Shown: one piece after another, positions 1,288-31,741 of the stretch
Layout: each line of letters opens with the position of its first letter
How positions within the stretch are numbered: position 1 is the first letter of the stretch
Sequence record: OQ703618.1
Origin: Escherichia phage GADS24
DNA length: 64,000 nucleotides
Strand: one strand, 5' to 3'
The notes under the pieces: model-generated
Database searches by the model: none
Seen by the model: the letters and a program-made list of their open reading frames with translations, nothing else
What the model was told of the DNA's origin: nothing
Program-made: the position numbers and the translations under genes

Positions 1288-3501
1288 TTATTTGGCCGCT
1301 TCCACGGCCTTCATGAATTTAACGATTTGAGCGACCTGTTCTTTAGAAAGAGTACCACGTCGTCCCATGTATTCTGACACAATATGATAATTGGTTTCAA
1401 ATTCAATAACCATTTTATCATCATTATCGTAAGCATTATCTTTAAGCTTATCGAAAATTTTAGCACACAGTTCTAACTTCCTGTTCAGGTCTCTGTTATT
1501 AGCACCTGCGAATCGATTCCATCCCCAACGATTATTTACTGTTGAAAGTTTTGCAAAATCTTTACTGATTTCTTTGTTCTTAGAGCTAAAATACTTACTA
1601 AGGAAGTTAAGCTCTTCATTACGAGTAATATGGTTTAGATAGGGCTGTGCTCTACGACTTGGTGATACATACTCATCATAATCTACTTTATCGATTAGCG
1701 TAATGTAGTCATTAATTGATTTTTCGAACAAGCATTCTACTTCACCAAGTTTACGAACTTTCTTAGCAATCTGTGGGCGGACCACAGTGAACTCTTTAAT
1801 ACCTGACAAATCGGCAATACGAGTCAAGAAACCAGAATCATAGTTCAACCAACCTTTATCTGCGTCAAGACATTCAGCATTAGAACGATTACGAACTATA
1901 GCATAACCTTGGATTTCATCAGCTTCACTCGCCGGAATAAAGAGATCTTCTGATACCCAAACATCGTTTTCGTTCTTAAAGAACCGATGAGCACTTGGGG
2001 ATTTAGGACGAGGCCCATTAGAACGAGTCTTGACTTCAATCCATGGCTTAACGATTTGTAAAAGCTCTGAAGTCTTGTACATGTTAATGTTGTCGCCATC
2101 AAAGATAACTTTAAGGCGTTCCAGAAGTTTCATTGCATCTTCGTCTGTAGGGTCAACGAATAGTACGCTTTTACCAAAACCGCGTGGAACTTTACCGGTT
2201 AATTTAACCTCGTCTTTAGACATTTCAATTGAATTAAGAGCTCGCATTAATGGAACACGTCCCTTAACGTCGTCAATAACAATTTCAACGTTTTTAATGT
2301 TAATGCCAATCAGACTGTTAATTGAAATAGTTGCAGATGAGCTACCACTTTCACGAATACGACGAAGACGAGGGTCTTCAATGATATCGTATACGACGCC
2401 GAGATTACACCATTCGGGTCCCATTTTAAAACGTTTGTACAACTCAGAATAAGTTAGTTGTTCTTTAGAATATTTCAGAGATTCAATATTAGTCCCAGCC
2501 TTTTCCATGTATTTGCGAGCGGTATAGCCAAGAGAATCAATTTCACGGAACACATGACGCGGGTATTTACAATCAATCCATTTCTTAGAATCTTCAGCGA
2601 ACAATTTAGCATCGATTTCTGCAACGCGTTTATGGATATTTGCTACTGTACGTTTATCAAATGACAATGCTTCACGAGACGGGGCTACATCTAGTTCACC
2701 CATAGGGAATTTAATATAAGCTGTAGTGCATCGCGTCATCATCCATGTTTGTTCTTTAATAACACTTCCGATTGGATACACAATACCACCATAAACAGCC
2801 ATGATATTACCACGTTCACCCCATGGAGCTTCCTTGGCCAAATATACATCATCAAATTCAGGAAAGTATTTGATATCTTTAACACCACGAACTTCTGCAA
2901 TATCACCTAGAGGACGCATAACATAAGCAATTTCGGATGCGAACTTTTCAAAATCTTCTGGGTTAACAGGCACAACTACTTCAACGCCAGTCCGGTCATC
3001 AGGTCCCATCTTATCTACGAAGGTTGGCTTAATTTGTGGACCACTGTCATCTTGGTAGATTACGTAACCACGAACTTCACCATTGTGATAAGACGTAAGG
3101 TTAAACGTATCGGTATATGCTAGTGGAGCTTTAGAGCCGAGTCCGAATCCACCAATGAAATCGTTACTCGATGTTTTAGTTGAAGCAAAATATGAGTTAT
3201 AGATTCCTGGCTCTTCGTCATTACCTCGAATGGTGAAATCACTCATACCAGGACCAAAGTCTCTAACTACAAAACGTGGGTCTAAACGACCTGGAGCCTG
3301 AACAATAAACTTATCAGTGCAACCATTAAGAATTTGTCCATCGATACAGTTTGTGATTAATTCACGTACACAAGCCAATTCTTTGTTTGTATAAAGGTCA
3401 TTAGACAAAATCTTATAAACTTTGCTATTGCCTTGAATAGTAAATGCTGTGCTCTTACCGCCTGAGCCAATAATCGTTTCTTTAGCCGTTTCAATAATCA
3501 T
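1288..3501 (-). CDS. rIIA: rIIA protein (GHKL ATPase-like)
   Basis: 737 aa; T4 rIIA-like sequence and size; upstream of rIIB. Confidence 0.9.
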   Translation of the reverse strand: MIIETAKETIIGSGGKSTAFTIQGNSKVYKILSNDLYTNKELACVRELITNCIDGQILNGCTDKFIVQAPGRLDPRFVVRDFGPGMSDFTIRGNDEEPGIYNSYFASTKTSSNDFIGGFGLGSKAPLAYTDTFNLTSYHNGEVRGYVIYQDDSGPQIKPTFVDKMGPDDRTGVEVVVPVNPEDFEKFASEIAYVMRPLGDIAEVRGVKDIKYFPEFDDVYLAKEAPWGERGNIMAVYGGIVYPIGSVIKEQTWMMTRCTTAYIKFPMGELDVAPSREALSFDKRTVANIHKRVAEIDAKLFAEDSKKWIDCKYPRHVFREIDSLGYTARKYMEKAGTNIESLKYSKEQLTYSELYKRFKMGPEWCNLGVVYDIIEDPRLRRIRESGSSSATISINSLIGINIKNVEIVIDDVKGRVPLMRALNSIEMSKDEVKLTGKVPRGFGKSVLFVDPTDEDAMKLLERLKVIFDGDNINMYKTSELLQIVKPWIEVKTRSNGPRPKSPSAHRFFKNENDVWVSEDLFIPASEADEIQGYAIVRNRSNAECLDADKGWLNYDSGFLTRIADLSGIKEFTVVRPQIAKKVRKLGEVECLFEKSINDYITLIDKVDYDEYVSPSRRAQPYLNHITRNEELNFLSKYFSSKNKEISKDFAKLSTVNNRWGWNRFAGANNRDLNRKLELCAKIFDKLKDNAYDNDDKMVIEFETNYHIVSEYMGRRGTLSKEQVAQIVKFMKAVEAAK

Positions 3502-3513
3502 ATTTTTCTCTCA

Positions 3514-3714
3514 TCACAAGTTACGTTTAAAAATTTCTGCTACTTCAAGAAGTTCTTCTTTAGTAGCTGTATCGGTTTGTATTTTATATCGAATTTCTTT
3601 AAAGCGTTCTTTAAAGGACTCTGCTGACTCGATATCAAAAAATCTTTGGATAAGCCGGAATTCCCGGAGCACCGCTTTATCAAAAAGGTCCAAGTCCACG
3701 TTATATGTTCTCAT
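3514..3714 (-). CDS. small hypothetical protein (rIIA.1 position)
   Basis: 66-aa ORF immediately upstream of rIIA, synteny with T4 rIIA.1. Confidence 0.45.
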   Translation of the reverse strand: MRTYNVDLDLFDKAVLREFRLIQRFFDIESAESFKERFKEIRYKIQTDTATKEELLEVAEIFKRNL

Positions 3715-3740
3715 AATATTCTCTTCAGTAGATTCCTAGG

Positions 3741-3789
3741 GCACTATTATTAAAGACCATATAATCTATCATCTTATGTGTAATAGTGC
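3741..3789 (-). other. inverted repeat (9-bp arms gcactatta/taatagtgc) enclosing conserved GATGATAGA motif
   Basis: Seen in sequence between glycosyltransferase stop and rIIA.1 start. Confidence 0.5.
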
Positions 3790-3806
3790 CTCAGGCGATT
3801 CAGGAT

Positions 3807-4907
3807 TTACGCTGTGAAGATTTTATCCCACATCGCAACAACTGCATCTCGGTTATACTTCTTCCATACTGCTTCAGCGCGTTTAACTCGAGCTTCGTAT
3901 GTGTCAGTGAATTCTAATACAGCTTTTGTGTAAAGCGCAACTACTTCTTTCTTAGGAGTAGAGGAATCAATTTCTACACGCACAGTATCTGGGTCGTATT
4001 CGAATGTCGCATGAGGATAATCCTTAAAAACTAACTGGATTACAGGGACACCTTTAGAGATGGCTTCAATAGAACTATTCTCTACTGTACCTGTGTCAGG
4101 ACACGTATTAATAAGTGCTTTAGCTGTTTTAAGACGTTCCATGATTTCACTGTGTGGAGCATCAATAATAACAGGATATTTAGCTGGTGGTGCCCATTTA
4201 CTAGGACAGTATCCTACACCATTTTCGCCTAGTGCTTTAATCGCTTCAAGAGCAACATCAGTACGACGCATTTTAGTGTCATAACGTTGTGCACTAATAA
4301 TCAAATCAGTTGCCGGGAGAACTTCTGGTTTTTCAGTCAAACAAATAACCGGATAATCTTCGGCTTCAAACAACGGATTTGCTCGCCAATAATCATAATC
4401 AATTTTGTCAGTCAGACCTGAAGTCATATAACAATATTTGCGTTCAAATTCACGGAAGGCTTTAGTAGGAGCATAACTCTTACCACCATTCTTATGAATT
4501 TGAATAGTCTGGTCCCAAATTTGAACAATGCCACGAGATACCGGTTCAAATGGTGTTGCCATAAAATTCTTATGAACTTTAGAGAGACCTGCGTCTTTAA
4601 TTGCCTGAACGGTTAGTTTAGTCGGTTCCATAGTAACAACAAAATCGTATTCATGTATGCCGGCTAGTTCGACAATCTTACGAGCCATAGTATAACTCAT
4701 ACCTAGACTGAATTTAGTCAGATGTCCAACAGGGTGGTGTGTAACTTTCCAGTCACCAAACGTGTCATTATCAAAGCCGATATAATCAATATCAGCACCG
4801 ATGGACACAAGATATTTCAACACATTTAAATGTACTGCTTCAAGACCACCTTGTACACGGTCAGGATTAAATGGGACTGCACGAGATGGGATAAACATAA
4901 CTTTCAT
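3807..4907 (-). CDS. GT-B fold glycosyltransferase (candidate DNA sugar transferase)
   Basis: 366 aa; C-terminal E-x-x-x-EA-x-x-KG-x-PVI motif typical of GT1/GT4 enzymes; inserted between rIIA.1 and topoisomerase. Confidence 0.6.
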   Translation of the reverse strand: MKVMFIPSRAVPFNPDRVQGGLEAVHLNVLKYLVSIGADIDYIGFDNDTFGDWKVTHHPVGHLTKFSLGMSYTMARKIVELAGIHEYDFVVTMEPTKLTVQAIKDAGLSKVHKNFMATPFEPVSRGIVQIWDQTIQIHKNGGKSYAPTKAFREFERKYCYMTSGLTDKIDYDYWRANPLFEAEDYPVICLTEKPEVLPATDLIISAQRYDTKMRRTDVALEAIKALGENGVGYCPSKWAPPAKYPVIIDAPHSEIMERLKTAKALINTCPDTGTVENSSIEAISKGVPVIQLVFKDYPHATFEYDPDTVRVEIDSSTPKKEVVALYTKAVLEFTDTYEARVKRAEAVWKKYNRDAVVAMWDKIFTA

Positions 4908-4921
4908 AATTAAGCCTTATT

Positions 4922-4951
4922 AAAATTAAAATGAAGCTCCCGAAGGAGCTT
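4922..4951 (-). terminator. intrinsic terminator after topoisomerase gene
   Basis: Stem aagctcc/ggagctt with cgaa loop, T-run on minus strand. Confidence 0.55.
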
Positions 4952-6767
4952 AGGACATCCATTCTTTACGAAGTTCTGAATCATCACCCAACAACATTTC
5001 AAAGAGTTCTTTCCAGTTTTCAGGAAGTTTAACTACGTCGTACACAGGGTTCTGAATCATTTCACGATATTCTGACTTTTCAAGGGAGCCTAATCCCTTG
5101 ATGTATCGAATACTATGCTTAGGCAGTGTATCTTTAACTTCTTCATACTCAGCTACAGTATAAAACCATTTTTGAGTTTTGCCAATTTGTGCAATAATTA
5201 CAGGCGTTTTAACAAAGCGAATACGTCCTTGTTCAAACAATTCAGGCCAATTACTAAAGAAAGCAAGCAAAGCCGGATAAATACTTCCAAGGCCGTCATG
5301 ATCGGCATCGGTCATAATTGCAATATTACGATAGTTCGTATTCTCTGCCTTTTCACCAAGAATAAGACCTGTGATAGCACAGATATCAAAGAGCTCTTTG
5401 TTCTTCATCATATCAGCATATGACATACCCCAGCTATTCATCACCTTACCACGTAATGGGAATCCACCGTGTAGTTCACGGTCACGAACATCAATGAGAT
5501 AACCAATTGCCGAATCACCTTCTGTTAAGAACAATGTCGTATCTGCATCTTTACCACATTGGTTAGCTTTAATATGCTTATGAACCTTAGCTTTAGTTGC
5601 CTTTTTAGCTGCTTTAGTTTCTGCAGCCTTTTCTGCTGCCAATTTACGAGCTAATGCTGCTTCAACAATAGGCATAATCAAGGCTTCGTTTTTAAGAAGT
5701 GCCTGAGCAATTTTCTTAGCATCTAATTGGATATGATTACGAATATCACCATACGTTGACGTTAATCGTTCTTTAGTCTGAGAATCAAAACGCATGTTGC
5801 TCATGTCTCTAATAAACATCAACATTGTGAGGCATTCTTTAACACGAGCTTTAGTGACTTCAATACCCTTATATTTCTTTTTAATACCAGGCAAAAGATG
5901 TTCGCAGATATCATCCATTACACATTCAACATGATGACCACCGTTTTTAGTATGGATGTTATTCACATAAGTTAAATGACGGAAGCCGTCTGGTGATGTT
6001 GTGAATGCTATAGAGACTTTATCATTTTCTTGAATGATGTTATCTTCGCCAAATTGTTTAGCAAATCGTTTAAAATTACCATCAACCTTTTTACCATTAA
6101 ATGTGAACTTGATATCAGGATAAACGACTGCCAATGTTTGAAGTCGGTCTAAAGTAATATCTAAATAAATTTGAGATAAATTATGCTCTTCAAACGAAGA
6201 GAAATCAGGAGTGAAGATTACTTTAGTGCCTTTACCTTTAGATTTCTTAGAAGACCATGATTTGTTTTCCATTCCGTTTGAACAGTTAACAGTGATTTCA
6301 TTTTCGCCATCCGACGTGATGCCTGTAAACAACGTGGAGAAGATATTAGTTAAACTACTCCCGACGCCGTTCATACCACCAGTCTTGCGTTCAGAGTCAT
6401 CACCAAAGTTACCACCGGCCTTTGGAATAGTCCAGGCTGCTACAGGCCCAGGAATTTGTTCACCTGTTTGGTCGGTAACTAAACCTTGAGGAATACCACG
6501 TCCGTTATCTTCCACCGAAACTTGATTATTTTTAATTTGCACATCAATTTTATTTGCAAACTTAAATGATGTACGAATAGCTTCATCAACCGAGTTGTCA
6601 ATAATCTCATCGATTAATTTAACCAGACCAGGAACATATTCAACTTGTTGATATTTACCAAACAAAAAACGCTCATGGGCTTCTTTAGCAGAAGAACCAA
6701 TATACATACCACTACGTTTCTTAATATGTTCTACATCTGACAATACCTTAATTTCATTTTTAATCAT
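4950..6767 (-). CDS. 39: DNA topoisomerase II large subunit, fused gp60+gp39 (GyrB-like ATPase)
   Basis: 605 aa; GHKL ATPase and TOPRIM motifs; single uninterrupted ORF, no gene-60 bypass. Confidence 0.85.
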   Translation of the reverse strand: MIKNEIKVLSDVEHIKKRSGMYIGSSAKEAHERFLFGKYQQVEYVPGLVKLIDEIIDNSVDEAIRTSFKFANKIDVQIKNNQVSVEDNGRGIPQGLVTDQTGEQIPGPVAAWTIPKAGGNFGDDSERKTGGMNGVGSSLTNIFSTLFTGITSDGENEITVNCSNGMENKSWSSKKSKGKGTKVIFTPDFSSFEEHNLSQIYLDITLDRLQTLAVVYPDIKFTFNGKKVDGNFKRFAKQFGEDNIIQENDKVSIAFTTSPDGFRHLTYVNNIHTKNGGHHVECVMDDICEHLLPGIKKKYKGIEVTKARVKECLTMLMFIRDMSNMRFDSQTKERLTSTYGDIRNHIQLDAKKIAQALLKNEALIMPIVEAALARKLAAEKAAETKAAKKATKAKVHKHIKANQCGKDADTTLFLTEGDSAIGYLIDVRDRELHGGFPLRGKVMNSWGMSYADMMKNKELFDICAITGLILGEKAENTNYRNIAIMTDADHDGLGSIYPALLAFFSNWPELFEQGRIRFVKTPVIIAQIGKTQKWFYTVAEYEEVKDTLPKHSIRYIKGLGSLEKSEYREMIQNPVYDVVKLPENWKELFEMLLGDDSELRKEWMS

Positions 6768-25182: not shown

Positions 25183-25200
25183 CAGGCTCTTAACGAGCCC
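25183..25200 (-). terminator. weak hairpin terminator after kinase gene
   Basis: Stem ggctc/gagcc followed by T-rich tract on minus. Confidence 0.3.
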
Positions 25201-25738
25201 ATTTGATAATTTCTGTAATCAAATTATTACGTTCGCTTGCATTAAATCCTATAACTTTGTTAGCACCATCATGATTAAGTAATTGATATGTTTGGATTTT
25301 GTTATGAATTGCAAACTCTTCAAAATGTGAAATGACTGTATTAAAACCGAATGAAGACAAAGTAATAAGGTCGTCTTCAAAACTTTCAGTCATTTCGTTA
25401 CGTGTTAAAATAATTGTGAACACATCATGGTTTTGGCAAAGACGAACATAATCCTGTTCATAAACATCAAGAACCGAGTCCGCATCTTGTCGAATACGTC
25501 CATAAACCCAGTTACTAATATATCCACGGTCTAACAGATAAATCTTAGTAGGGTCTAAATAATTCAACATCGTTTCGAAACAGCCAACTTCATTTCGAGA
25601 CTTAACATCAAAACGTCCATCAACTGTTCGTTTAGGGAAATCAATTTTTACATATCTTTCACTAATTTCCATTATGTCATTAATGAAAGTTGTTTTACCA
25701 GCATTATCCGGGCCATCTACTAAAATAATTTTAGCCAT
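25190..25738 (-). CDS. P-loop nucleoside/nucleotide kinase-like protein
   Basis: 182 aa; Walker A GPDNAGKTT; LLDRGY lid-like motif. Confidence 0.55.
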   Translation of the reverse strand: MAKIILVDGPDNAGKTTFINDIMEISERYVKIDFPKRTVDGRFDVKSRNEVGCFETMLNYLDPTKIYLLDRGYISNWVYGRIRQDADSVLDVYEQDYVRLCQNHDVFTIILTRNEMTESFEDDLITLSSFGFNTVISHFEEFAIHNKIQTYQLLNHDGANKVIGFNASERNNLITEIIKWAR

Positions 25739-25739
25739 T

Positions 25740-26639
25740 TTATTCCTCGATTACGACATCTTCGTATTTAGGTATATTATACGGTGAAGAAATTAAAGCA
25801 TTAAAGTAGATGAACTCGCCAAGACCTGGATGGAATACTTCTTCAGGATTTTCGAAATATTGAATCTTCGGCCGTCCTTTAAGAATTTGATAGTACTCAG
25901 TTTTAGTTGGTTTAAAAATTCGAATCAGCGCTTCTTCAGGATACTTATTTCTATCGAAGCTATTATTTGGATCGGTTACATAAAGCGGTTGACCTAATTG
26001 AATTGCACATTCAACCACTTGTTCAAAACGATAGCACGGGTCACTAATTCGAAATGGATGAAAAATACCATCTAGATGAATAGGAGCCAAATCACCTACA
26101 AAACGCTGCATGATGGAAGGACGTATAACTTTCTGGGTTACGATAATCTTATTACCATCTGCACCAGCGTTAACCAGCACTTCCTTTTGACGTTCATTCA
26201 ACACAGTAGTTTGAAGTGAACGATTAACCGACAACATGTCGGTTTTTAAGAATTCGTCAATATAAAAACGTGGTTTATTAGGGTCTGCAGTGATATTGAA
26301 ATTGAATTCTACATCAAAAGCTCCGTCATATCCAGTGATATCTGTTATTAGAAAATCACAATCATAATAAGCAATTAATGAATCAACCACAAATTCATTT
26401 TCAGACCAGAAATATTTACGAGTGTTATACGCGTTATCTTTATACCATAACGGAACAAACTTAAATTCTGGGAAAAGACGTTCACATTCTTTAATATCAG
26501 ATGCATTACGTGGATATGTAATAACATCACCCGGATTAGCACGGTGCAAATGAAGTTGGAAGTTGCCATCCTTAAGGATAGCATACTCTCCAGTTTCATA
26601 AGACCGCATACTCAAGATAGGTACGCGGAAAATAGCCAT
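25740..26639 (-). CDS. putative glycosyltransferase (GT-B-like) at the T4 beta-gt locus
   Basis: 299 aa; C-terminal FEQVVECAIQLGQPLYVTD resembles GT-B donor-binding motif; position uvsX-42. Confidence 0.45.
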   Translation of the reverse strand: MAIFRVPILSMRSYETGEYAILKDGNFQLHLHRANPGDVITYPRNASDIKECERLFPEFKFVPLWYKDNAYNTRKYFWSENEFVVDSLIAYYDCDFLITDITGYDGAFDVEFNFNITADPNKPRFYIDEFLKTDMLSVNRSLQTTVLNERQKEVLVNAGADGNKIIVTQKVIRPSIMQRFVGDLAPIHLDGIFHPFRISDPCYRFEQVVECAIQLGQPLYVTDPNNSFDRNKYPEEALIRIFKPTKTEYYQILKGRPKIQYFENPEEVFHPGLGEFIYFNALISSPYNIPKYEDVVIEE

Positions 26640-27355
26640 TAGTCAAGGAATCCTTTAACATAATCAAAATCACGTTCAAACACATGGGCACTTACCATGG
26701 TATGAGTATAATCACCAACTTCTACACCACATTCGTTAGCGATATAATGAAGTAATTTTCCTTGGAGATAAAAATCCAACTGCATAACAACAGCACAGTT
26801 CTGAGAACGCATATGGCAGTGGGTATAAAGCTTACCATCACGAATATAATAAGTCACTGAGTCAGTACATGGATATTCAAGCGTTTCGTCCGAATCAAGC
26901 AAAGCCTGATCAGAACTTTCTAGAATTTGGAACACAACTCTTCGAGAGTTAGGTTTCTCTTTAAGTTCTTTGAGAAGAGCTGGTAACTGGGCCGCAATTC
27001 GTGGACCATAGAAAGTGTTGAAGTTTGCAGGCAAAGCATCTGATTTCGGTTTAGAAATAAATTTAGCAACGTTAGGATATGCCTTAAATGCTTCTTCTGC
27101 ATCAGTTCCGCCAGAAATCATAAATTTCCAGAAATCTTCGGCATATTCATAAGAGATGCGGTTAATACGTGGGTCGGTCATTTTGAATGATGATGGAGTG
27201 TCAACAACTACTGTCATAGACCCAATTTCATTACAACGTCCAATACGAGAATCAGTTACGAATTCCGGGTTTTCTAAAATCTCACGATTGACTGCTTTAA
27301 ATGCGGATTGAAAATCTGCGGCTTTAATATATTTCATTGTGTTATGTTTTCCCAT
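26639..27355 (-). CDS. 42: dCMP hydroxymethylase gp42 (thymidylate synthase fold)
   Basis: 238 aa; NSRR...YPCTDSV...HMRSQN motifs parallel T4 gp42. Confidence 0.8.
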   Translation of the reverse strand: MGKHNTMKYIKAADFQSAFKAVNREILENPEFVTDSRIGRCNEIGSMTVVVDTPSSFKMTDPRINRISYEYAEDFWKFMISGGTDAEEAFKAYPNVAKFISKPKSDALPANFNTFYGPRIAAQLPALLKELKEKPNSRRVVFQILESSDQALLDSDETLEYPCTDSVTYYIRDGKLYTHCHMRSQNCAVVMQLDFYLQGKLLHYIANECGVEVGDYTHTMVSAHVFERDFDYVKGFLD

Positions 27356-27396
27356 GTTTACCTCAATACAGTTATTATATACTCAATTCATAAAGC

Positions 27397-27636
27397 TTAT
27401 TTGAATTTCTTAGCGATGTTGATATAACGTAGAGCTTCGGCATCGATACTTCTAAGGACACTATGAAGGAATGCGTCGGCATAGTATTCTAGTTGAACAG
27501 GTTCTTTAATCGCTTTAGCCGCTTTAGTTTCAAACAGGCCCATAAGGGCCTTTTTAAGAATTTGTTCGTTGCTGGTAATTTTAATAGTCAAAATCTCTTC
27601 ATTAAGTTGGTGGTTAAAAGTTTTTCTAGAAATCAT
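27397..27636 (-). CDS. hypothetical protein
   Basis: 79-aa ORF. Confidence 0.4.
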   Translation of the reverse strand: MISRKTFNHQLNEEILTIKITSNEQILKKALMGLFETKAAKAIKEPVQLEYYADAFLHSVLRSIDAEALRYINIAKKFK

Positions 27637-28793
27637 TCCGGGTACCTCAAAGCGTCGTCAGAGTTAGTTATATCAATAATAGATATAGAATTTTCTGATA
27701 ACCCATTTTTAGATAACTGACGTTTATAATATCTTTCACAATATGTACACGTCGTCCCGCAGATTTCATTAGCACAATCGAAATCTGGATGTCTGAACCA
27801 CCTTTTTTCTAAAAAGCCGTCTAACAAAGAGGTTTCAATATTTACCGTATGTGAAAACTCGGTCTCATTTTCAAGAGTGAAAATGGTCTCTAAAGGCTTC
27901 CACAGTTCTAACAAATTACCTTCAAACTTTTCAGAAGCGTATGCTTCAAGAACTTTCAAAATGTAGTCTGTGCTACCTGTACGTCCTGAAACTTTGAATT
28001 GAGTGATACCAATATCATTATAAAGTTTCAAATCTTGTGGACGAACAAAACGAGTTCTCAACCAGTTAAATGGGTCTGTATCACGAGCTTTAATACAGTG
28101 CTGCATAGGATATCCATTTAAGGATTTAGCATCATCAGCTGTAACATCAGTACTATGGAAAATATAGCAAGAGTCACGATAGCTACAATGTGTTGTATAC
28201 CCTTTACCAGCATTAGAACAGAACTCATTTACAAGAACTTCAAATATTATATTGTTCTTATTGCAAAACTCTGCTGCACGCTTCAGGAAAGAAACTGAAC
28301 GGTTCTTATGAATTCCACAGCAGACCTTTTTGATATTATACTGGTCATGTAAGTATTTGATTTGAGTTACAGCATCGACATGTAAAATTGTTGAAACTTC
28401 AATCTCAATGTCTTTATTGACTTCACGAACAATTTCCATAACAACAGGGTTAGCGATAGTAATACGCCATACGCCTATTGACCAAAGATACTGAACATAA
28501 TCCTGAATAGCTTTCTTCTTCCACTCAACTAGTTCTCTTTTTGAACCGGGATTTATCGTGTTGAGTGTATAGTTAAAGCAAATACCTAATTCGTTACAAC
28601 GTTTAACGTAATCTTCTAACATCTTTTTGTCAACGTCAGGAAGCCTAAAATCAGGTCTGGCTGCTACAAAAGCCATTTCTCTTGTAGAGCCGTATACTTC
28701 GTTTATCAAGCTATTAGGATAAGTTTTATTGAGCTCTACGATTTTATCAAGAAGAGCTAAATCAAAATTCGTTCCGATTTTAAAAGTATTCAT
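27633..28793 (-). CDS. Cys-rich hypothetical enzyme in modification cluster
   Basis: ~386 aa from ATG preceded by A9 tract; multiple Cys clusters (CCGIH, CANEICGTTCTYCE). Confidence 0.5.
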   Translation of the reverse strand: MNTFKIGTNFDLALLDKIVELNKTYPNSLINEVYGSTREMAFVAARPDFRLPDVDKKMLEDYVKRCNELGICFNYTLNTINPGSKRELVEWKKKAIQDYVQYLWSIGVWRITIANPVVMEIVREVNKDIEIEVSTILHVDAVTQIKYLHDQYNIKKVCCGIHKNRSVSFLKRAAEFCNKNNIIFEVLVNEFCSNAGKGYTTHCSYRDSCYIFHSTDVTADDAKSLNGYPMQHCIKARDTDPFNWLRTRFVRPQDLKLYNDIGITQFKVSGRTGSTDYILKVLEAYASEKFEGNLLELWKPLETIFTLENETEFSHTVNIETSLLDGFLEKRWFRHPDFDCANEICGTTCTYCERYYKRQLSKNGLSENSISIIDITNSDDALRYPE

Positions 28794-28852
28794 TTTTTTT
28801 TTGCATCTCACGTTAATTGACGCGATGGTTTTTGCAGGTCTTACTTAAATTA

Positions 28853-29239
28853 TTATAGATTCGGTTTATATGATTTAAATGTTTCGAATTCGCCTTTATT
28901 CATAAGAGCTTTGAATTCGTCGGGACGCATAGCTTTGTCGTCGATAATCCAATCATATACTGGTTTATGTGTTAGCAAATTATGGTACTTCAAGCCAATG
29001 TTTGCCAAGTTCTGAATAAGACTTGGGAGAATGTCAATTGCTATACGACCAGGACCTACTGACTTCATACCGCGAGCAGTGTAAAGCGTTATGGTATGCC
29101 CTGCATCATACAGGGCATTAATGGCAGACACCATTTCGACGTCTGGTTTGAAGTTCACGTAATCACGATTGTTATTCCACTCTGTTATACAATCATCGAC
29201 ATCAAAACAAAGATTAAGCATGTTTTCTACACGGTGCAT
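28853..29239 (-). CDS. HAD-like phosphatase (small)
   Basis: FDVDDC motif (DxD) near N-terminus; start overlaps upstream stop (TAATG). Confidence 0.45.
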   Translation of the reverse strand: MHRVENMLNLCFDVDDCITEWNNNRDYVNFKPDVEMVSAINALYDAGHTITLYTARGMKSVGPGRIAIDILPSLIQNLANIGLKYHNLLTHKPVYDWIIDDKAMRPDEFKALMNKGEFETFKSYKPNL

Positions 29240-30924
29240 TAGATTCGTTCCCATTGATGAGTGATATCGCCACCGATTGGACGATAGGAAACACCAGTTT
29301 CTTTATCAGTTAGTACCCATTTACCAGGATTTTTTGTAATCAGAGTAGCCGTTACAGGTTCTGCCATGTCATAACTAATAGAGCCGTCCTGAAGTACACG
29401 GCCCATGTTACGTAATTGCTTAGTCAGAAGTTCCATACCTTTATAATATGCGGCTACCGCTTTAAGTGGATTATTCTTGAAATAACCACCTAATGCAATC
29501 CAGATAATTGCTACAGCCAAATGATGATACTCGTTAAATGAACTCATCTTTCCATATTTGTAAACTAATGGATTGATGTTAATAGTCACATTACAAGTTG
29601 TTTCATCAATAGTAAACTGTCCCCAGGTCGGATTAGCGTTGAATTCATCATAACCTGAAACAGCATAAAGCACTTTAGCTTCATCGTACAATTTTGGCCC
29701 GTAAATCTTGGTTTCGCCAAAATATCCACGAGGGTCGATAAACTTGACTTCGCCGTTATCAGTAATCATAGTATTACTGAAGTTCGGGTCACCGTGAATA
29801 ACAGAGTACTGTCCCTGAGAACGGTTATGATAACGAATAAGGTGTTCTAAAGCTTGTTTCAGCATTGGCTTCAGACGCCCAATCTTAGTGTAGTTCACAT
29901 GTGTGATTTTACCAAATGAATCAATCAATGGTTGAATACTTTCACAACGATCAATAACTTTCGTATAGAATTCTTTAGTGAAATCACGACGAACAGTTTC
30001 AGGACTTACAAAATAAGTGTCTGTGCTGAATTTCAGTGCATCTAAAATTGCATCAACAATTTGTGGACGAGCAAGACTCGATTTAGATTTAATATATTCA
30101 AATGCCGGCTTACCTTTAATGCGTTCCATTTCAAAGTTATTTTCATTAACAGAAACTAACTGAGGAACTGAATCTGATTTCACTTTAAGATACCATGAAA
30201 TCTCATCTTTCTGAAGAGCTCGTCCCTGTTCGGTTAATGCGAATTTAGTTACAGTTTCTTCACCAATTTCAACTGCATTAAAACTACGATTAAGTTCACG
30301 AACTTCATGAGCTTTTTCAAGTTTAGGCATATCACCTAAATCAATTAGATTCATAAGCTCTGATTTATTGAATGCGCCGCTGTAAAGGAATTCTACGAAA
30401 TCACGTCCTTTGCAGTATTCATGAATTTCCTCATCAGTAGAACCCATATAGAATTCCCAGTCTTTGAATTGATAAATTCCTACAACATTACCACCTGTTG
30501 AACCTACGTTAGTGATATTTTCACCGTCGAAATTATATCGACATTCGTCACCCTTAACATAGATTGCGTTAACATTCCAAGACCATGAACCAAAATCAGG
30601 AATAATATCACACCAGTTAACAATTACATTATGGCCGTCTAAATCTTTGTGTAATTTAGCAAGAGCATAAGCGGAACCATATGCTTCATCAACTGTACGA
30701 ATAGTCACATTGAACCCTTCTTGCTCACAATAAGCTCGAACAGTTTCAGCAAATTTTGAATGAACTACTACAATAATTTCATCTGCGCCAAGGTCAGAAT
30801 AAATTGTATACAAATTGCTCAGAATAGTGTCTTGTTTATAGTTAACAAGCACCTTAGGAATATGATGCGTTATTGGATACAAACGAGTTGCCAGTCCAGC
30901 ACCAAGAATAACAGCTTTTTTCAT
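29239..30924 (-). CDS. bifunctional sugar-1-phosphate nucleotidyltransferase / APH-like sugar kinase
   Basis: N-term GAGLATRLYPITHHIPKVL (G-x-G-T-R NTase); C-term HGDPNFSN and IDPRG (Brenner kinase motifs). Confidence 0.7.
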   Translation of the reverse strand: MKKAVILGAGLATRLYPITHHIPKVLVNYKQDTILSNLYTIYSDLGADEIIVVVHSKFAETVRAYCEQEGFNVTIRTVDEAYGSAYALAKLHKDLDGHNVIVNWCDIIPDFGSWSWNVNAIYVKGDECRYNFDGENITNVGSTGGNVVGIYQFKDWEFYMGSTDEEIHEYCKGRDFVEFLYSGAFNKSELMNLIDLGDMPKLEKAHEVRELNRSFNAVEIGEETVTKFALTEQGRALQKDEISWYLKVKSDSVPQLVSVNENNFEMERIKGKPAFEYIKSKSSLARPQIVDAILDALKFSTDTYFVSPETVRRDFTKEFYTKVIDRCESIQPLIDSFGKITHVNYTKIGRLKPMLKQALEHLIRYHNRSQGQYSVIHGDPNFSNTMITDNGEVKFIDPRGYFGETKIYGPKLYDEAKVLYAVSGYDEFNANPTWGQFTIDETTCNVTININPLVYKYGKMSSFNEYHHLAVAIIWIALGGYFKNNPLKAVAAYYKGMELLTKQLRNMGRVLQDGSISYDMAEPVTATLITKNPGKWVLTDKETGVSYRPIGGDITHQWERI

Positions 30925-30952
30925 GTTGTGGTCCTCATTGGTAAGTAGGAGT

Positions 30953-30977
30953 ATTGTACACTATTCTAGTTAAAGCA
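30953..30977 (-). promoter_or_regulatory. T4-type middle promoter (MotA box TGCTTTA, 12-bp spacer, -10 TACAAT)
   Basis: Minus-strand motif ~30 nt upstream of NTase-kinase ATG. Confidence 0.45.
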
Positions 30978-31099
30978 TTCATACTTTGCTTGTAGTCCAA
31001 TCATAATCCATCCAATTACAAGTGTTGGAATCATTACTGGAGCCGTTAAGCTCCAGTAGATAGTCATGACAAGCATCAATAGTAAAAGTCCTATTGTTA
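30956..31099 (-). CDS. small hydrophobic protein (47 aa)
   Basis: Hand-translated MKAITIGLLLLMLVMTIYW...; overlaps middle promoter. Confidence 0.25.
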
Positions 31100-31105
31100 T
31101 TGCTT

Positions 31106-31741
31106 TCATTGTTCGCCTCGTAACATGGCACCTAGTGCACCACCAGGGTGGAACTTAAGGAAGTCATTAGAGGTAAATCCACGTTCAGACGAAAGGTTGA
31201 TAGCGAACGTATCGATAAGCGCTAACAACAATGTAGTAGACATTGTCGGAGCTAAAGAGTTCTCGTCAACTTCTACCGCGATGCCTGTACAGAAAGAGTA
31301 ATCAAAAAGGGCTTCATTTTCTTGCGGAATGTCAGGGTTACAATGTAACAGAATCTGTTTAACCTGAGGACGAATCATACGAAGATGTTTAGCAACACCT
31401 ATCATTTCTTCGGTTTTACCAGAACGACTAATATGAATCAACACATCATTAGGCGCAATGAATCCTGCATCACCGTGAGAATAATGCCCAGTGTTCAAGT
31501 ACATACTCGGGATACCGAGTGAAGCAAATGTCTCAGAAGCTTTAGTTGCAATATTAGCATTCTTACCAACACCTGTAATAATTACTCGGCTTTCATAATT
31601 ACTAAGTCCTGGGCGTCGAAGAGTTTCTAGAATAGCATTATAACGAGCAGGGTTTTGACTAATTACTTTGGCCATAGTAGCCAAAGAAGAAGCTTGTTTT
31701 ACGATTGCGTCAATAGCGATAGTAATAGGAGTAGTTTTCAT
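31106..31741 (-). CDS. SIS-domain sugar phosphate isomerase (KdsD/GutQ-type arabinose-5-phosphate isomerase-like, no CBS domains)
   Basis: 211 aa; GVGKNANIATKASETFASLGIPS...HGD...ISRSGKTEE matches SIS signature. Confidence 0.7.
   Translation of the reverse strand: MKTTPITIAIDAIVKQASSLATMAKVISQNPARYNAILETLRRPGLSNYESRVIITGVGKNANIATKASETFASLGIPSMYLNTGHYSHGDAGFIAPNDVLIHISRSGKTEEMIGVAKHLRMIRPQVKQILLHCNPDIPQENEALFDYSFCTGIAVEVDENSLAPTMSTTLLLALIDTFAINLSSERGFTSNDFLKFHPGGALGAMLRGEQ

Follow-up and report, generated by a model that had tools for sequence, protein, structure and literature searches.

A GT-B glycosyltransferase between rIIA.1 and the topoisomerase gene of an RB69-like phage, probably the second transferase of cytosine arabinosylation

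The interval between rIIA.1 and gene 39

A stretch of 64,000 nucleotides from Escherichia phage GADS24 (record OQ703618.1), hereafter the window, was analysed. It belongs to a Mosigvirus, that is, an RB69-like phage: over the first 12 kb it shares 96-98% identity with the Mosigvirus genomes NHEP10, APCEc01 and Bas46/ChristianSchoenbein, which are relatives of RB69. An earlier note, made from the letters alone, had described an open reading frame of 366 codons between rIIA.1 and the topoisomerase gene, at a position where T4 has no glycosyltransferase, and had recognised a C-terminal EA...G.PVI signature in its product. All three observations were borne out (Table 1): the frame begins with ATG, T4 has only 54 bp from rIIA.1 to gene 60, and the signature reads IEAISKGVPVI (residues 280-290), of which E281, A282, G286, P288 and V289 are invariant in an alignment of nine family sequences. 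No second copy of this 366-residue transferase was detected in the window by tblastn.

Table 1. Features of the locus and of the arabinosylation cluster in the window
Feature	Position	Strand	Basis
rIIA	1288..3501	(-)	
rIIA.1	3514..3714	(-)	
Imperfect hairpin, 61 nt, between the transferase stop and the rIIA.1 start	3735..3795	(-)	Inverted-repeat search and RNA fold
Gene of the 366-residue GT-B glycosyltransferase, ATG start	3807..4907	(-)	ORF list; matches to PDB, RB69 and Bas46; fold
Shine-Dalgarno AAGG of the transferase gene	4915..4918	(-)	7 nt 5' of the ATG; read from the sequence
UUCG-loop hairpin, 7-bp stem at 4934..4951, with U-rich tail	4924..4951	(-)	Terminator scan
Fused gp39/60 topoisomerase subunit, 605 aa	4950..6767	(-)	
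Kinase-sized ORF	25190..25738		
GT1, 299-aa glycosyltransferase, RB69 gp46:47 homologue; proposed first, base-proximal α-arabinosyltransferase	25740..26639	(-)	ORF list; PMC13326640
Thymidylate-synthase homologue, 5-hydroxy-dCMP synthase; makes the acceptor base	26639..27355	(-)	Pfam PF00303; PDB match
U32-like protein	27633..28811		
133-aa protein at the position of RB69 gp51/HY126 AfhF	28853..29254	(-)	Position and size only; no Pfam match
561-aa nucleotidyltransferase and kinase-like protein, RB69 ORF53_52c/HY126 AfhE-like	29239..30924	(-)	Pfam NTP_transferase; weak kinase-family matches
SIS-domain protein, putative arabinose-5-phosphate isomerase, RB69 gp55-like	31106..31741	(-)	Pfam SIS; assignment PMC13326640

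Hairpins flank the gene on both sides. The upstream one has a UUCG loop on a stem at 4951..4934 of the minus strand, followed by CATTTTAATT; it begins inside the stop codon of gene 39, 16 nt 5' of the transferase start. Taken alone its fold is energetically unexceptional (z = -0.76), and the 3.9-kb region around it contains seven terminator-like sites where 2.5 are expected. Together with its U-rich tail it is a putative terminator-like or mRNA-stabilising element, and expression of the transferase gene must depend on read-through of this hairpin or on promoters within gene 39. In phage JS10 the stop codon of gene 39 is also directly followed by a hairpin, of different sequence, and because of this analogous element the UUCG hairpin is better assigned to the 3' end of gene 39 than to the border of a cassette. 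That it might be such a border was rejected, the JS10 hairpin having other cargo downstream. The second hairpin, with arms at 3735-3749 and 3781-3795, folds as RNA at -24.2 kcal/mol (z = -4.8; none of 200 shuffled sequences folded equally well). It recurs at 95-99% identity in 154 records, all of them Mosigviruses. Since a U tail is lacking, it is not a canonical intrinsic terminator. A scan of positions 3400..5300 against Rfam assigned neither hairpin to a known RNA family.

When the window is compared with T4 and JS10, the match breaks off at about 3684-3723, in rIIA.1 near its start, and is taken up again at 4950-4956, where gene 39 has its 3' end. This indicates that the transferase gene and both intergenic regions are specific to Mosigviruses. 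Remnants of the gene were not found by tblastn in the corresponding slot of T4 and JS10; in the latter phage, which has GT1 and lacks the 366-residue transferase, the slot measures 588 bp and holds two unrelated, unannotated small open reading frames and a GC hairpin. The family has a third location in a T4-like metagenomic contig, where the gene of a homologue adjoins those of DNA ligase and dsbA. The slot between rIIA.1 and gene 39 varies in content among T4-like phages, and the transferase family moves. The proposal that the gene is an inserted module bracketed by a terminator and an inverted repeat can thus be retained in part: both structures exist and the slot is variable, but the upstream hairpin is better read as the end of gene 39, the downstream one is not a canonical terminator, and the composition of the gene is normal, with no mark of recent horizontal acquisition either in GC content (39.6% versus 37.2% for the window) or in GC3 (0.27 versus 0.29). 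Moreover, the gene is carried by about 155 Mosigvirus-type records at an identity of at least 95%, nearly the same number as the 153 with GT1 at this threshold.

Identity and fold of the 366-residue protein

A sequence search of the PDB returned entries 9IQZ and 9IR0, to which the protein is identical in 362 of 366 positions. They are named "phage HY126 glycosyltransferase", represent the apo form and the complex with UDP and are listed in the Foldseek table as released in July 2025; the depositors' name for the 9IQZ chain is [quoted passage not shown]. ORF003c (gp3) of RB69 is 98.9% identical, and bas46_0103, at the same position in Bas46, is annotated as "putative hmC-arabinosyltransferase". 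The RB69, HY126 and Bas46 proteins thus match that of the window at 98-99% identity over the full and equal length, lie between rIIA.1 and gene 39 and occur together with an arabinosylation cluster; among the Mosigvirus-type records identity ranges from 95 to 100%. Only four substitutions separate the protein from the HY126 enzyme (Y160H, G164A, T191N and S315F), all at positions that vary within the family, and they are not expected to cause a functional difference. Literature of 2018 to 2026 already covers this gene together with its structure and proposed role, and the window adds one more near-identical copy.

General family models hardly recognise the protein. Pfam (E ≤ 10) and NCBIfam gave no matches for it, and a scan of nine family members against both gave a single weak GT4-conflict match (E 0.0028); PHROG 8302, labelled "unknown function", matches it with an E value of 4e-222. 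The family is small, with 11 representatives among 1.84 billion clustered proteins in a full HMMER scan and 10 matches in a word-indexed search of 5.8 billion proteins.

The fold is that of the GT-B superfamily, with two Rossmann-like β/α/β domains and a C-terminal nucleotide-sugar site, and the GT-B assignment made from the letters alone is confirmed by the identity to the HY126 structures. A first AlphaFold2 model, calculated from a five-sequence alignment, reached a pLDDT of 61 and a TM score of 0.52 to the true structure and was replaced by a model based on nine sequences. In the structure search it came closest to sucrose-phosphate synthase, BshA, PimA/PimB', WaaB/WaaG and PglH-type enzymes, at 10-14% identity. 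Neither of the Pfam models Glycos_transf_1 and Glyco_trans_4 matches the protein, and its membership in GT4 is one of fold level only. All aligned family members share residues G20-G21, R208, R214 and E281; we take them to correspond to the glycine loop (G20-G21), the diphosphate-binding (R208/R214) and the ribose-binding (E281) positions of GT4 enzymes. The glutamates are spaced E276-x4-E281 as compared to the canonical E-x7-E. This spacing, the low identity and the DNA-borne acceptor proposed here set the protein apart from retaining bacterial GT4 enzymes such as sucrose-phosphate synthase (6KIH), BshA, PimA and WaaG. It shares neither sequence homology nor the hydroxymethylcytosine (hmC) acceptor with T4 α-GT (GT72, PDB 1XV5/1Y6F) and β-GT (GT63), which are functional analogues and act on DNA.

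The nearest structural relatives act on acceptors other than DNA, and one metagenomic homologue is labelled "glycosyltransferase involved in cell wall biosynthesis". A lipid or polysaccharide of the host envelope, or a protein, could on these grounds be the acceptor of the phage enzyme, and clear homology to a cell-wall or lipid glycosyltransferase had been named beforehand as an outcome that would speak against a role in DNA modification. Such likeness was indeed found, but at the fold level only and at 10-14% identity, and at this level it is no argument against a DNA substrate. A non-DNA acceptor is extremely improbable for several further reasons. The scan of 1.84 billion clustered proteins gave no more than 11 representatives, and every member that can be placed (211 phage records and one metagenomic contig; a second contig is uninformative) belongs to a T4-like phage. 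The phage genera concerned also carry GT1 of the 5-hydroxycytosine (5hoC) pathway, the structure of the orthologue was solved in complex with UDP, presumably in the course of work on cytosine arabinofuranosylation, and the disaccharide on RB69 DNA needs a second transferase.

Pathway genes and distribution of the transferase family

Arabinose in the DNA of RB69 was described by Thomas et al. 2018, who nominated ORF003c as the transferase that puts it on the base (PMC6024577). The modified cytosine was later determined by MS/MS and NMR as β-D-Araf-(1-3)-α-D-Araf-5-hydroxy-dC (Lee et al. 2026, PMC13326640), and in RB69 as well as in phage NP the D-arabinofuranose is ether-linked to 5-hydroxycytosine (PMC13326640, PMC13390438). 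The base is made as a mononucleotide by a thymidylate-synthase homologue, and RB69p003 is listed in Table 1 of the same paper as "beta-arabinosyltransferase 2", with gp46:47 as "arabinosyltransferase 1" (PMC13326640). The earlier note had suggested that the 366-residue protein and the product of 25740..26639 attach the sugar to hmC, possibly as two successive sugars. A DNA-sugar pathway with two successive sugars is in agreement with the published chemistry (PMC13326640, PMC13390438), but the acceptor is 5-hydroxycytosine and the sugar D-arabinofuranose.

The window holds the whole arabinosylation cluster at 25190..31741, so that the 5-hydroxy-dCMP synthase, GT1 and the genes for synthesis of UDP-arabinofuranose (UDP-Araf) occur in one genome. 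The thymidylate-synthase homologue is virtually identical to the solved HY126 enzyme (9IQC/9IR2), which it matches over its full length with an E value of 1.8e-162. Its motif HMRSQNCAVVMQLDF corresponds to the exchanges D169N and N177D in an ungapped alignment to E. coli ThyA; this assignment rests on anchoring the alignment at the catalytic Cys and at Arg166/Ser167, as the gapped BLASTP alignment was shifted by two residues. The numbering of the ThyA sequence agrees with the residues given in PMC13326640. Entries 9IQC and 9IR2 share an accession series with the HY126 glycosyltransferase structures, and PMC13326640 cites He et al. 2026 for the crystal structure of the flavin-bound HY126 hydroxylase; presumably 9IQZ, 9IR0, 9IQC and 9IR2 all stem from that study. 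For the remaining genes, RB69 gp51/HY126 AfhF is an Araf-1,5-bisphosphate 5-phosphatase (PMC13326640), and the AfhE-like protein makes the donor UDP-arabinofuranose according to the passage of PMC13326640 that cites He et al. 2026. GT1 of the window has no Pfam, NCBIfam or PDB sequence match. Between GT1 and the family of the 366-residue transferase hhalign gave a probability of 0.1%, with no detectable similarity of sequence or profile, and by this measure the two are not recent paralogues.

Homologues of GT1 were found by tblastn in 348 phage records, nearly always adjoining the thymidylate-synthase homologue, from phages of Escherichia (Mosigvirus, Dhakavirus), Klebsiella, Serratia, Enterobacter, Proteus, Yersinia and Acinetobacter. 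The family of the 366-residue transferase is present in 211 records, about 155 of the Mosigvirus type with one copy and about 56 of the Acinetobacter type with two copies; tblastn revealed it in none of the other GT1-bearing genera, and it is confined to phage groups that also carry GT1. In terms of chemistry, RB69 DNA contains mono- plus di-arabinose and DLP3 DNA three arabinoses (PMC13326640), the Mosigvirus NP of the Durham collection has mono- and di-arabinosyl dC in a ratio of 1:4 (PMC13390438), LC53 of Prodigiosinella/Serratia has a single arabinose and Bas46 and Bas47 have two. The three Mosigvirus members analysed to date have di-arabinosyl DNA. The number of sugars thus tracks the number of family copies, 0, 1 and 2 copies going along with 1, 2 and 3 arabinoses, a correlation that comes from a handful of chemically characterised phages and in which the genotype of LC53, whose own record was not located, is taken from Serratia-host records with GT1 only. 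This pattern of distribution and copy number fits the 366-residue protein as the second transferase.

In the Acinetobacter phage Maestro the two copies lie in tandem within the cluster and immediately follow GT1 and the kinase. Their products, Maestro_077 and Maestro_078, share 56% identity, and each is 41-43% identical to the 366-residue protein over the full length. By position they correspond to arabinosyltransferases 2 and 3 of DLP3 (gp76 and gp77), and the proteins of RB69, HY126 and DLP3 and that of the window are homologous members of one family with a common GG loop and the motifs QR.D...R and TGTVE..S.EAIS.G.PV. The DLP3 enzymes are encoded by tandem paralogues beside GT1; in vitro neither works without the other, and their product is tri-arabinosylated. 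The window, in contrast, has a single gene at a distance of about 21 kb from the cluster, and the product that goes with it is di-arabinosylated. Note that the 366-residue protein is the outgroup to both Acinetobacter paralogues, which runs against the role of a second transferase, as it leaves a one-to-one orthology with gp77 unproven.

Proposed role in cytosine arabinosylation

The 366-residue protein is an RB69-type phage glycosyltransferase of soluble GT-B (GT4-like) architecture, and with good probability it serves as the second arabinosyltransferase in the Mosigvirus pathway of cytosine arabinosylation. In the mechanism proposed here, dC would be replaced by 5-hydroxy-dC, made as a mononucleotide by the thymidylate-synthase homologue, and GT1 would place the first α-D-arabinofuranose on the 5-oxygen of the base. 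The 366-residue transferase would then add a second arabinofuranose in β-(1-3) linkage from UDP-arabinofuranose to the first sugar on the DNA, most likely acting on this arabinose and not on the base. The resulting di-arabinosyl-5-hydroxycytosine would be the form in which most of the modified cytosine occurs in virion DNA of the RB69 type, and the longer sugar chain alters the range of host nucleases and defence systems to which this DNA is open. That the enzyme makes the second and not the first transfer, that it works on polymerised DNA and that it forms this linkage we infer from the pathway genes, the phyletic pattern, the published chemistry and the enzymes of DLP3, to which the activity tests of PMC13326640 were confined. 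In these assays gp76 and gp77 together added a third arabinose to RB69 DNA from UDP-Araf; individually they were inactive, and on DNA with 5hoC only they were inactive as well (PMC13326640).

The assignment of the two transferases could also be reversed, with the 366-residue protein as the first, base-proximal arabinosyltransferase and GT1 responsible for the second sugar or for sugar-nucleotide synthesis. This is the original proposal of Thomas et al. 2018 for RB69 ORF003c, which as such stands against a role as second transferase (PMC6024577). It gains from the inactivity of DLP3 gp79, the GT1 of that phage, on 5hoC DNA in vitro (PMC13326640) and from Thanatos TH1_063, which has the activity of a UDP-xylose pyrophosphorylase and not of a transferase (PMC12838424), this protein being GT1-like by size and synteny only. 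However, many arabinosylating phages do without the family of the 366-residue protein, as seen from 348 records with GT1 against 211 with the family. The DNA of LC53 is mono-arabinosylated, and the Serratia-host records, among which that of LC53 itself was not identified, match GT1 only. It follows that the first sugar cannot depend on this family. The parallel between copy number and sugar number points in the same direction, and the family homologues of DLP3 extend DNA that is already arabinosylated. We therefore regard a reversed order as clearly unlikely.

A further possibility is that the 366-residue transferase needs a partner such as GT1, in a complex or through coupling of their reactions, or that it works on an intermediate at the nucleotide level before replication. 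Mosigviruses have a single copy of the family and hence no paralogue as a partner, the homologous DLP3 enzymes acted on virion DNA, and the α- and β-glucosyltransferases of T4 are established to act on DNA as well; all this makes the possibility a very unlikely one. What speaks for it is the dependence of gp76 and gp77 on each other and the statement of the authors that a pre-replicative first arabinosylation cannot be told from a post-replicative one (PMC13326640).

How many arabinoses a cytosine carries matters for attack on the phage by restriction enzymes, type IV systems, glycosylases and CRISPR effectors, and Mosigviruses are common candidates for phage therapy. Bas46 without the arabinosyltransferase Aat becomes sensitive to a plasmid-borne defence system, as reported in a passage of PMC13216743 that cites Mahler et al. 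2025 and leaves unstated which of the two Bas46 glycosyltransferase genes is Aat.

The stereochemistry of the second transfer deserves separate comment. Both GT1 and the 366-residue transferase resemble retaining enzymes of the GT4 type, the former according to Table 1 of PMC13326640 and the latter in our structure search. The two linkages on RB69 DNA are of opposite anomeric configuration, the first α and the second β (PMC13326640). Unless the two enzymes use different donors, the stereochemical outcome of one of them must depart from that of its structural relatives. For the 366-residue transferase this is an observation against the assigned role, since its closest structural relatives are retaining and a retaining GT4 enzyme with an α-linked donor would not yield the predicted β product; if the donor is UDP-α-D-Araf, the enzyme would have to invert. 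We have considered, as a rather unlikely reading, that the β-Araf linkage is formed on a retaining-GT4-like scaffold while the equally GT4-like GT1 makes the α linkage, presumably with the same UDP-Araf as donor, so that one of the two transferases inverts or uses a different donor anomer, and that the gene is a portable chain-extension cassette in the arms race between phages and host defence. If this were true, inversion by an enzyme with a GT4-like, supposedly "retaining" fold would be a mechanistic oddity for the classification of glycosyltransferases, and the variable slot between rIIA.1 and gene 39 together with the third, metagenomic location would be the marks of such a cassette.

Stereochemistry and activity of the two glycosyltransferases

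The proposed second (beta) DNA arabinosyltransferase (366 aa, 3807..4907) and the proposed first, base-proximal alpha-arabinosyltransferase GT1 (299 aa, 25740..26639, (-)) both have retaining GT4-type enzymes as their nearest structural relatives. In the DNA of RB69, however, the first arabinose is linked in alpha and the second in beta configuration, so that one or both of these transferases would have to follow an unexpected stereochemical course.

The GT1 family has been taken as the first arabinosyltransferase (PMC13326640), in conflict with the UDP-xylose pyrophosphorylase activity reported for TH1_063 of phage Thanatos (PMC12838424). TH1_063 is a 300-aa GT-fold protein that adjoins a thymidylate-synthase homologue, and it is GT1-like by size and synteny.

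Genomic surroundings of the 366-aa glycosyltransferase

A homologue of the 366-aa protein on a T4-like JGI metagenome contig (Table) adjoins a DNA ligase gene and a phage DsbA gene, which puts the family at a third position in phage genomes. In Dhakavirus JS10 (NC_012741.1) the counterpart slot between gene 39 and rIIA.1 (2437..3024) is without annotation. It harbours two small ORFs and a hairpin, and the cargo of this slot therefore differs between genera.

Table. Features of the GADS24 window and of related genomes
Feature	Sequence	Position	Strand	Remarks
Member of the 366-aa glycosyltransferase family	Ga0489998_000752	3040..4224		34% identical
Hairpin, 61 nt	Window	3735..3795	(-)	Between glycosyltransferase stop and rIIA.1 start
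Topoisomerase large subunit	Window	4950..6767	(-)	One 605-aa protein
U32-peptidase-like ORF	Window	27633..28811	(-)	Inside arabinosylation cluster
Small ORF, about 54 aa	JS10	2437..3024 slot		Start MRKYWVT...
Small ORF, about 100 aa	JS10	2437..3024 slot		Start MIMQDNS...
GC-rich terminator-like hairpin	JS10	2437..3024 slot		AAGGGCCGCAAGGCCCTTTT

The hairpin of the window has a folding energy of -24.2 kcal/mol (z = -4.8), lacks a U tail and gave no match in Rfam. A total of 154 Mosigvirus records carry it, with a conservation of 95-99%; elsewhere it is absent. The topoisomerase subunit corresponds to a fusion of gp39 and gp60 of T4, and both the mobA/60.1 insertion and the gene 60 bypass element are missing from its gene.

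Arabinosylation cluster

The U32-peptidase-like ORF, whose putative role in the pathway is listed as 'sugar or heterocycle reductase' (PMC13326640), is flanked by the thymidylate-synthase homologue and a phosphatase-sized ORF; it has no equivalent in the cluster of Acinetobacter phage Maestro. For the thymidylate-synthase homologue (26639..27355, (-)), the published signature D169N/N177D is obtained only from an ungapped alignment to E. coli ThyA that is anchored on the catalytic Cys and Arg166/Ser167. BLASTP against the same enzyme places the RSQN...D motif (residues 179-196) with a shift of two residues.
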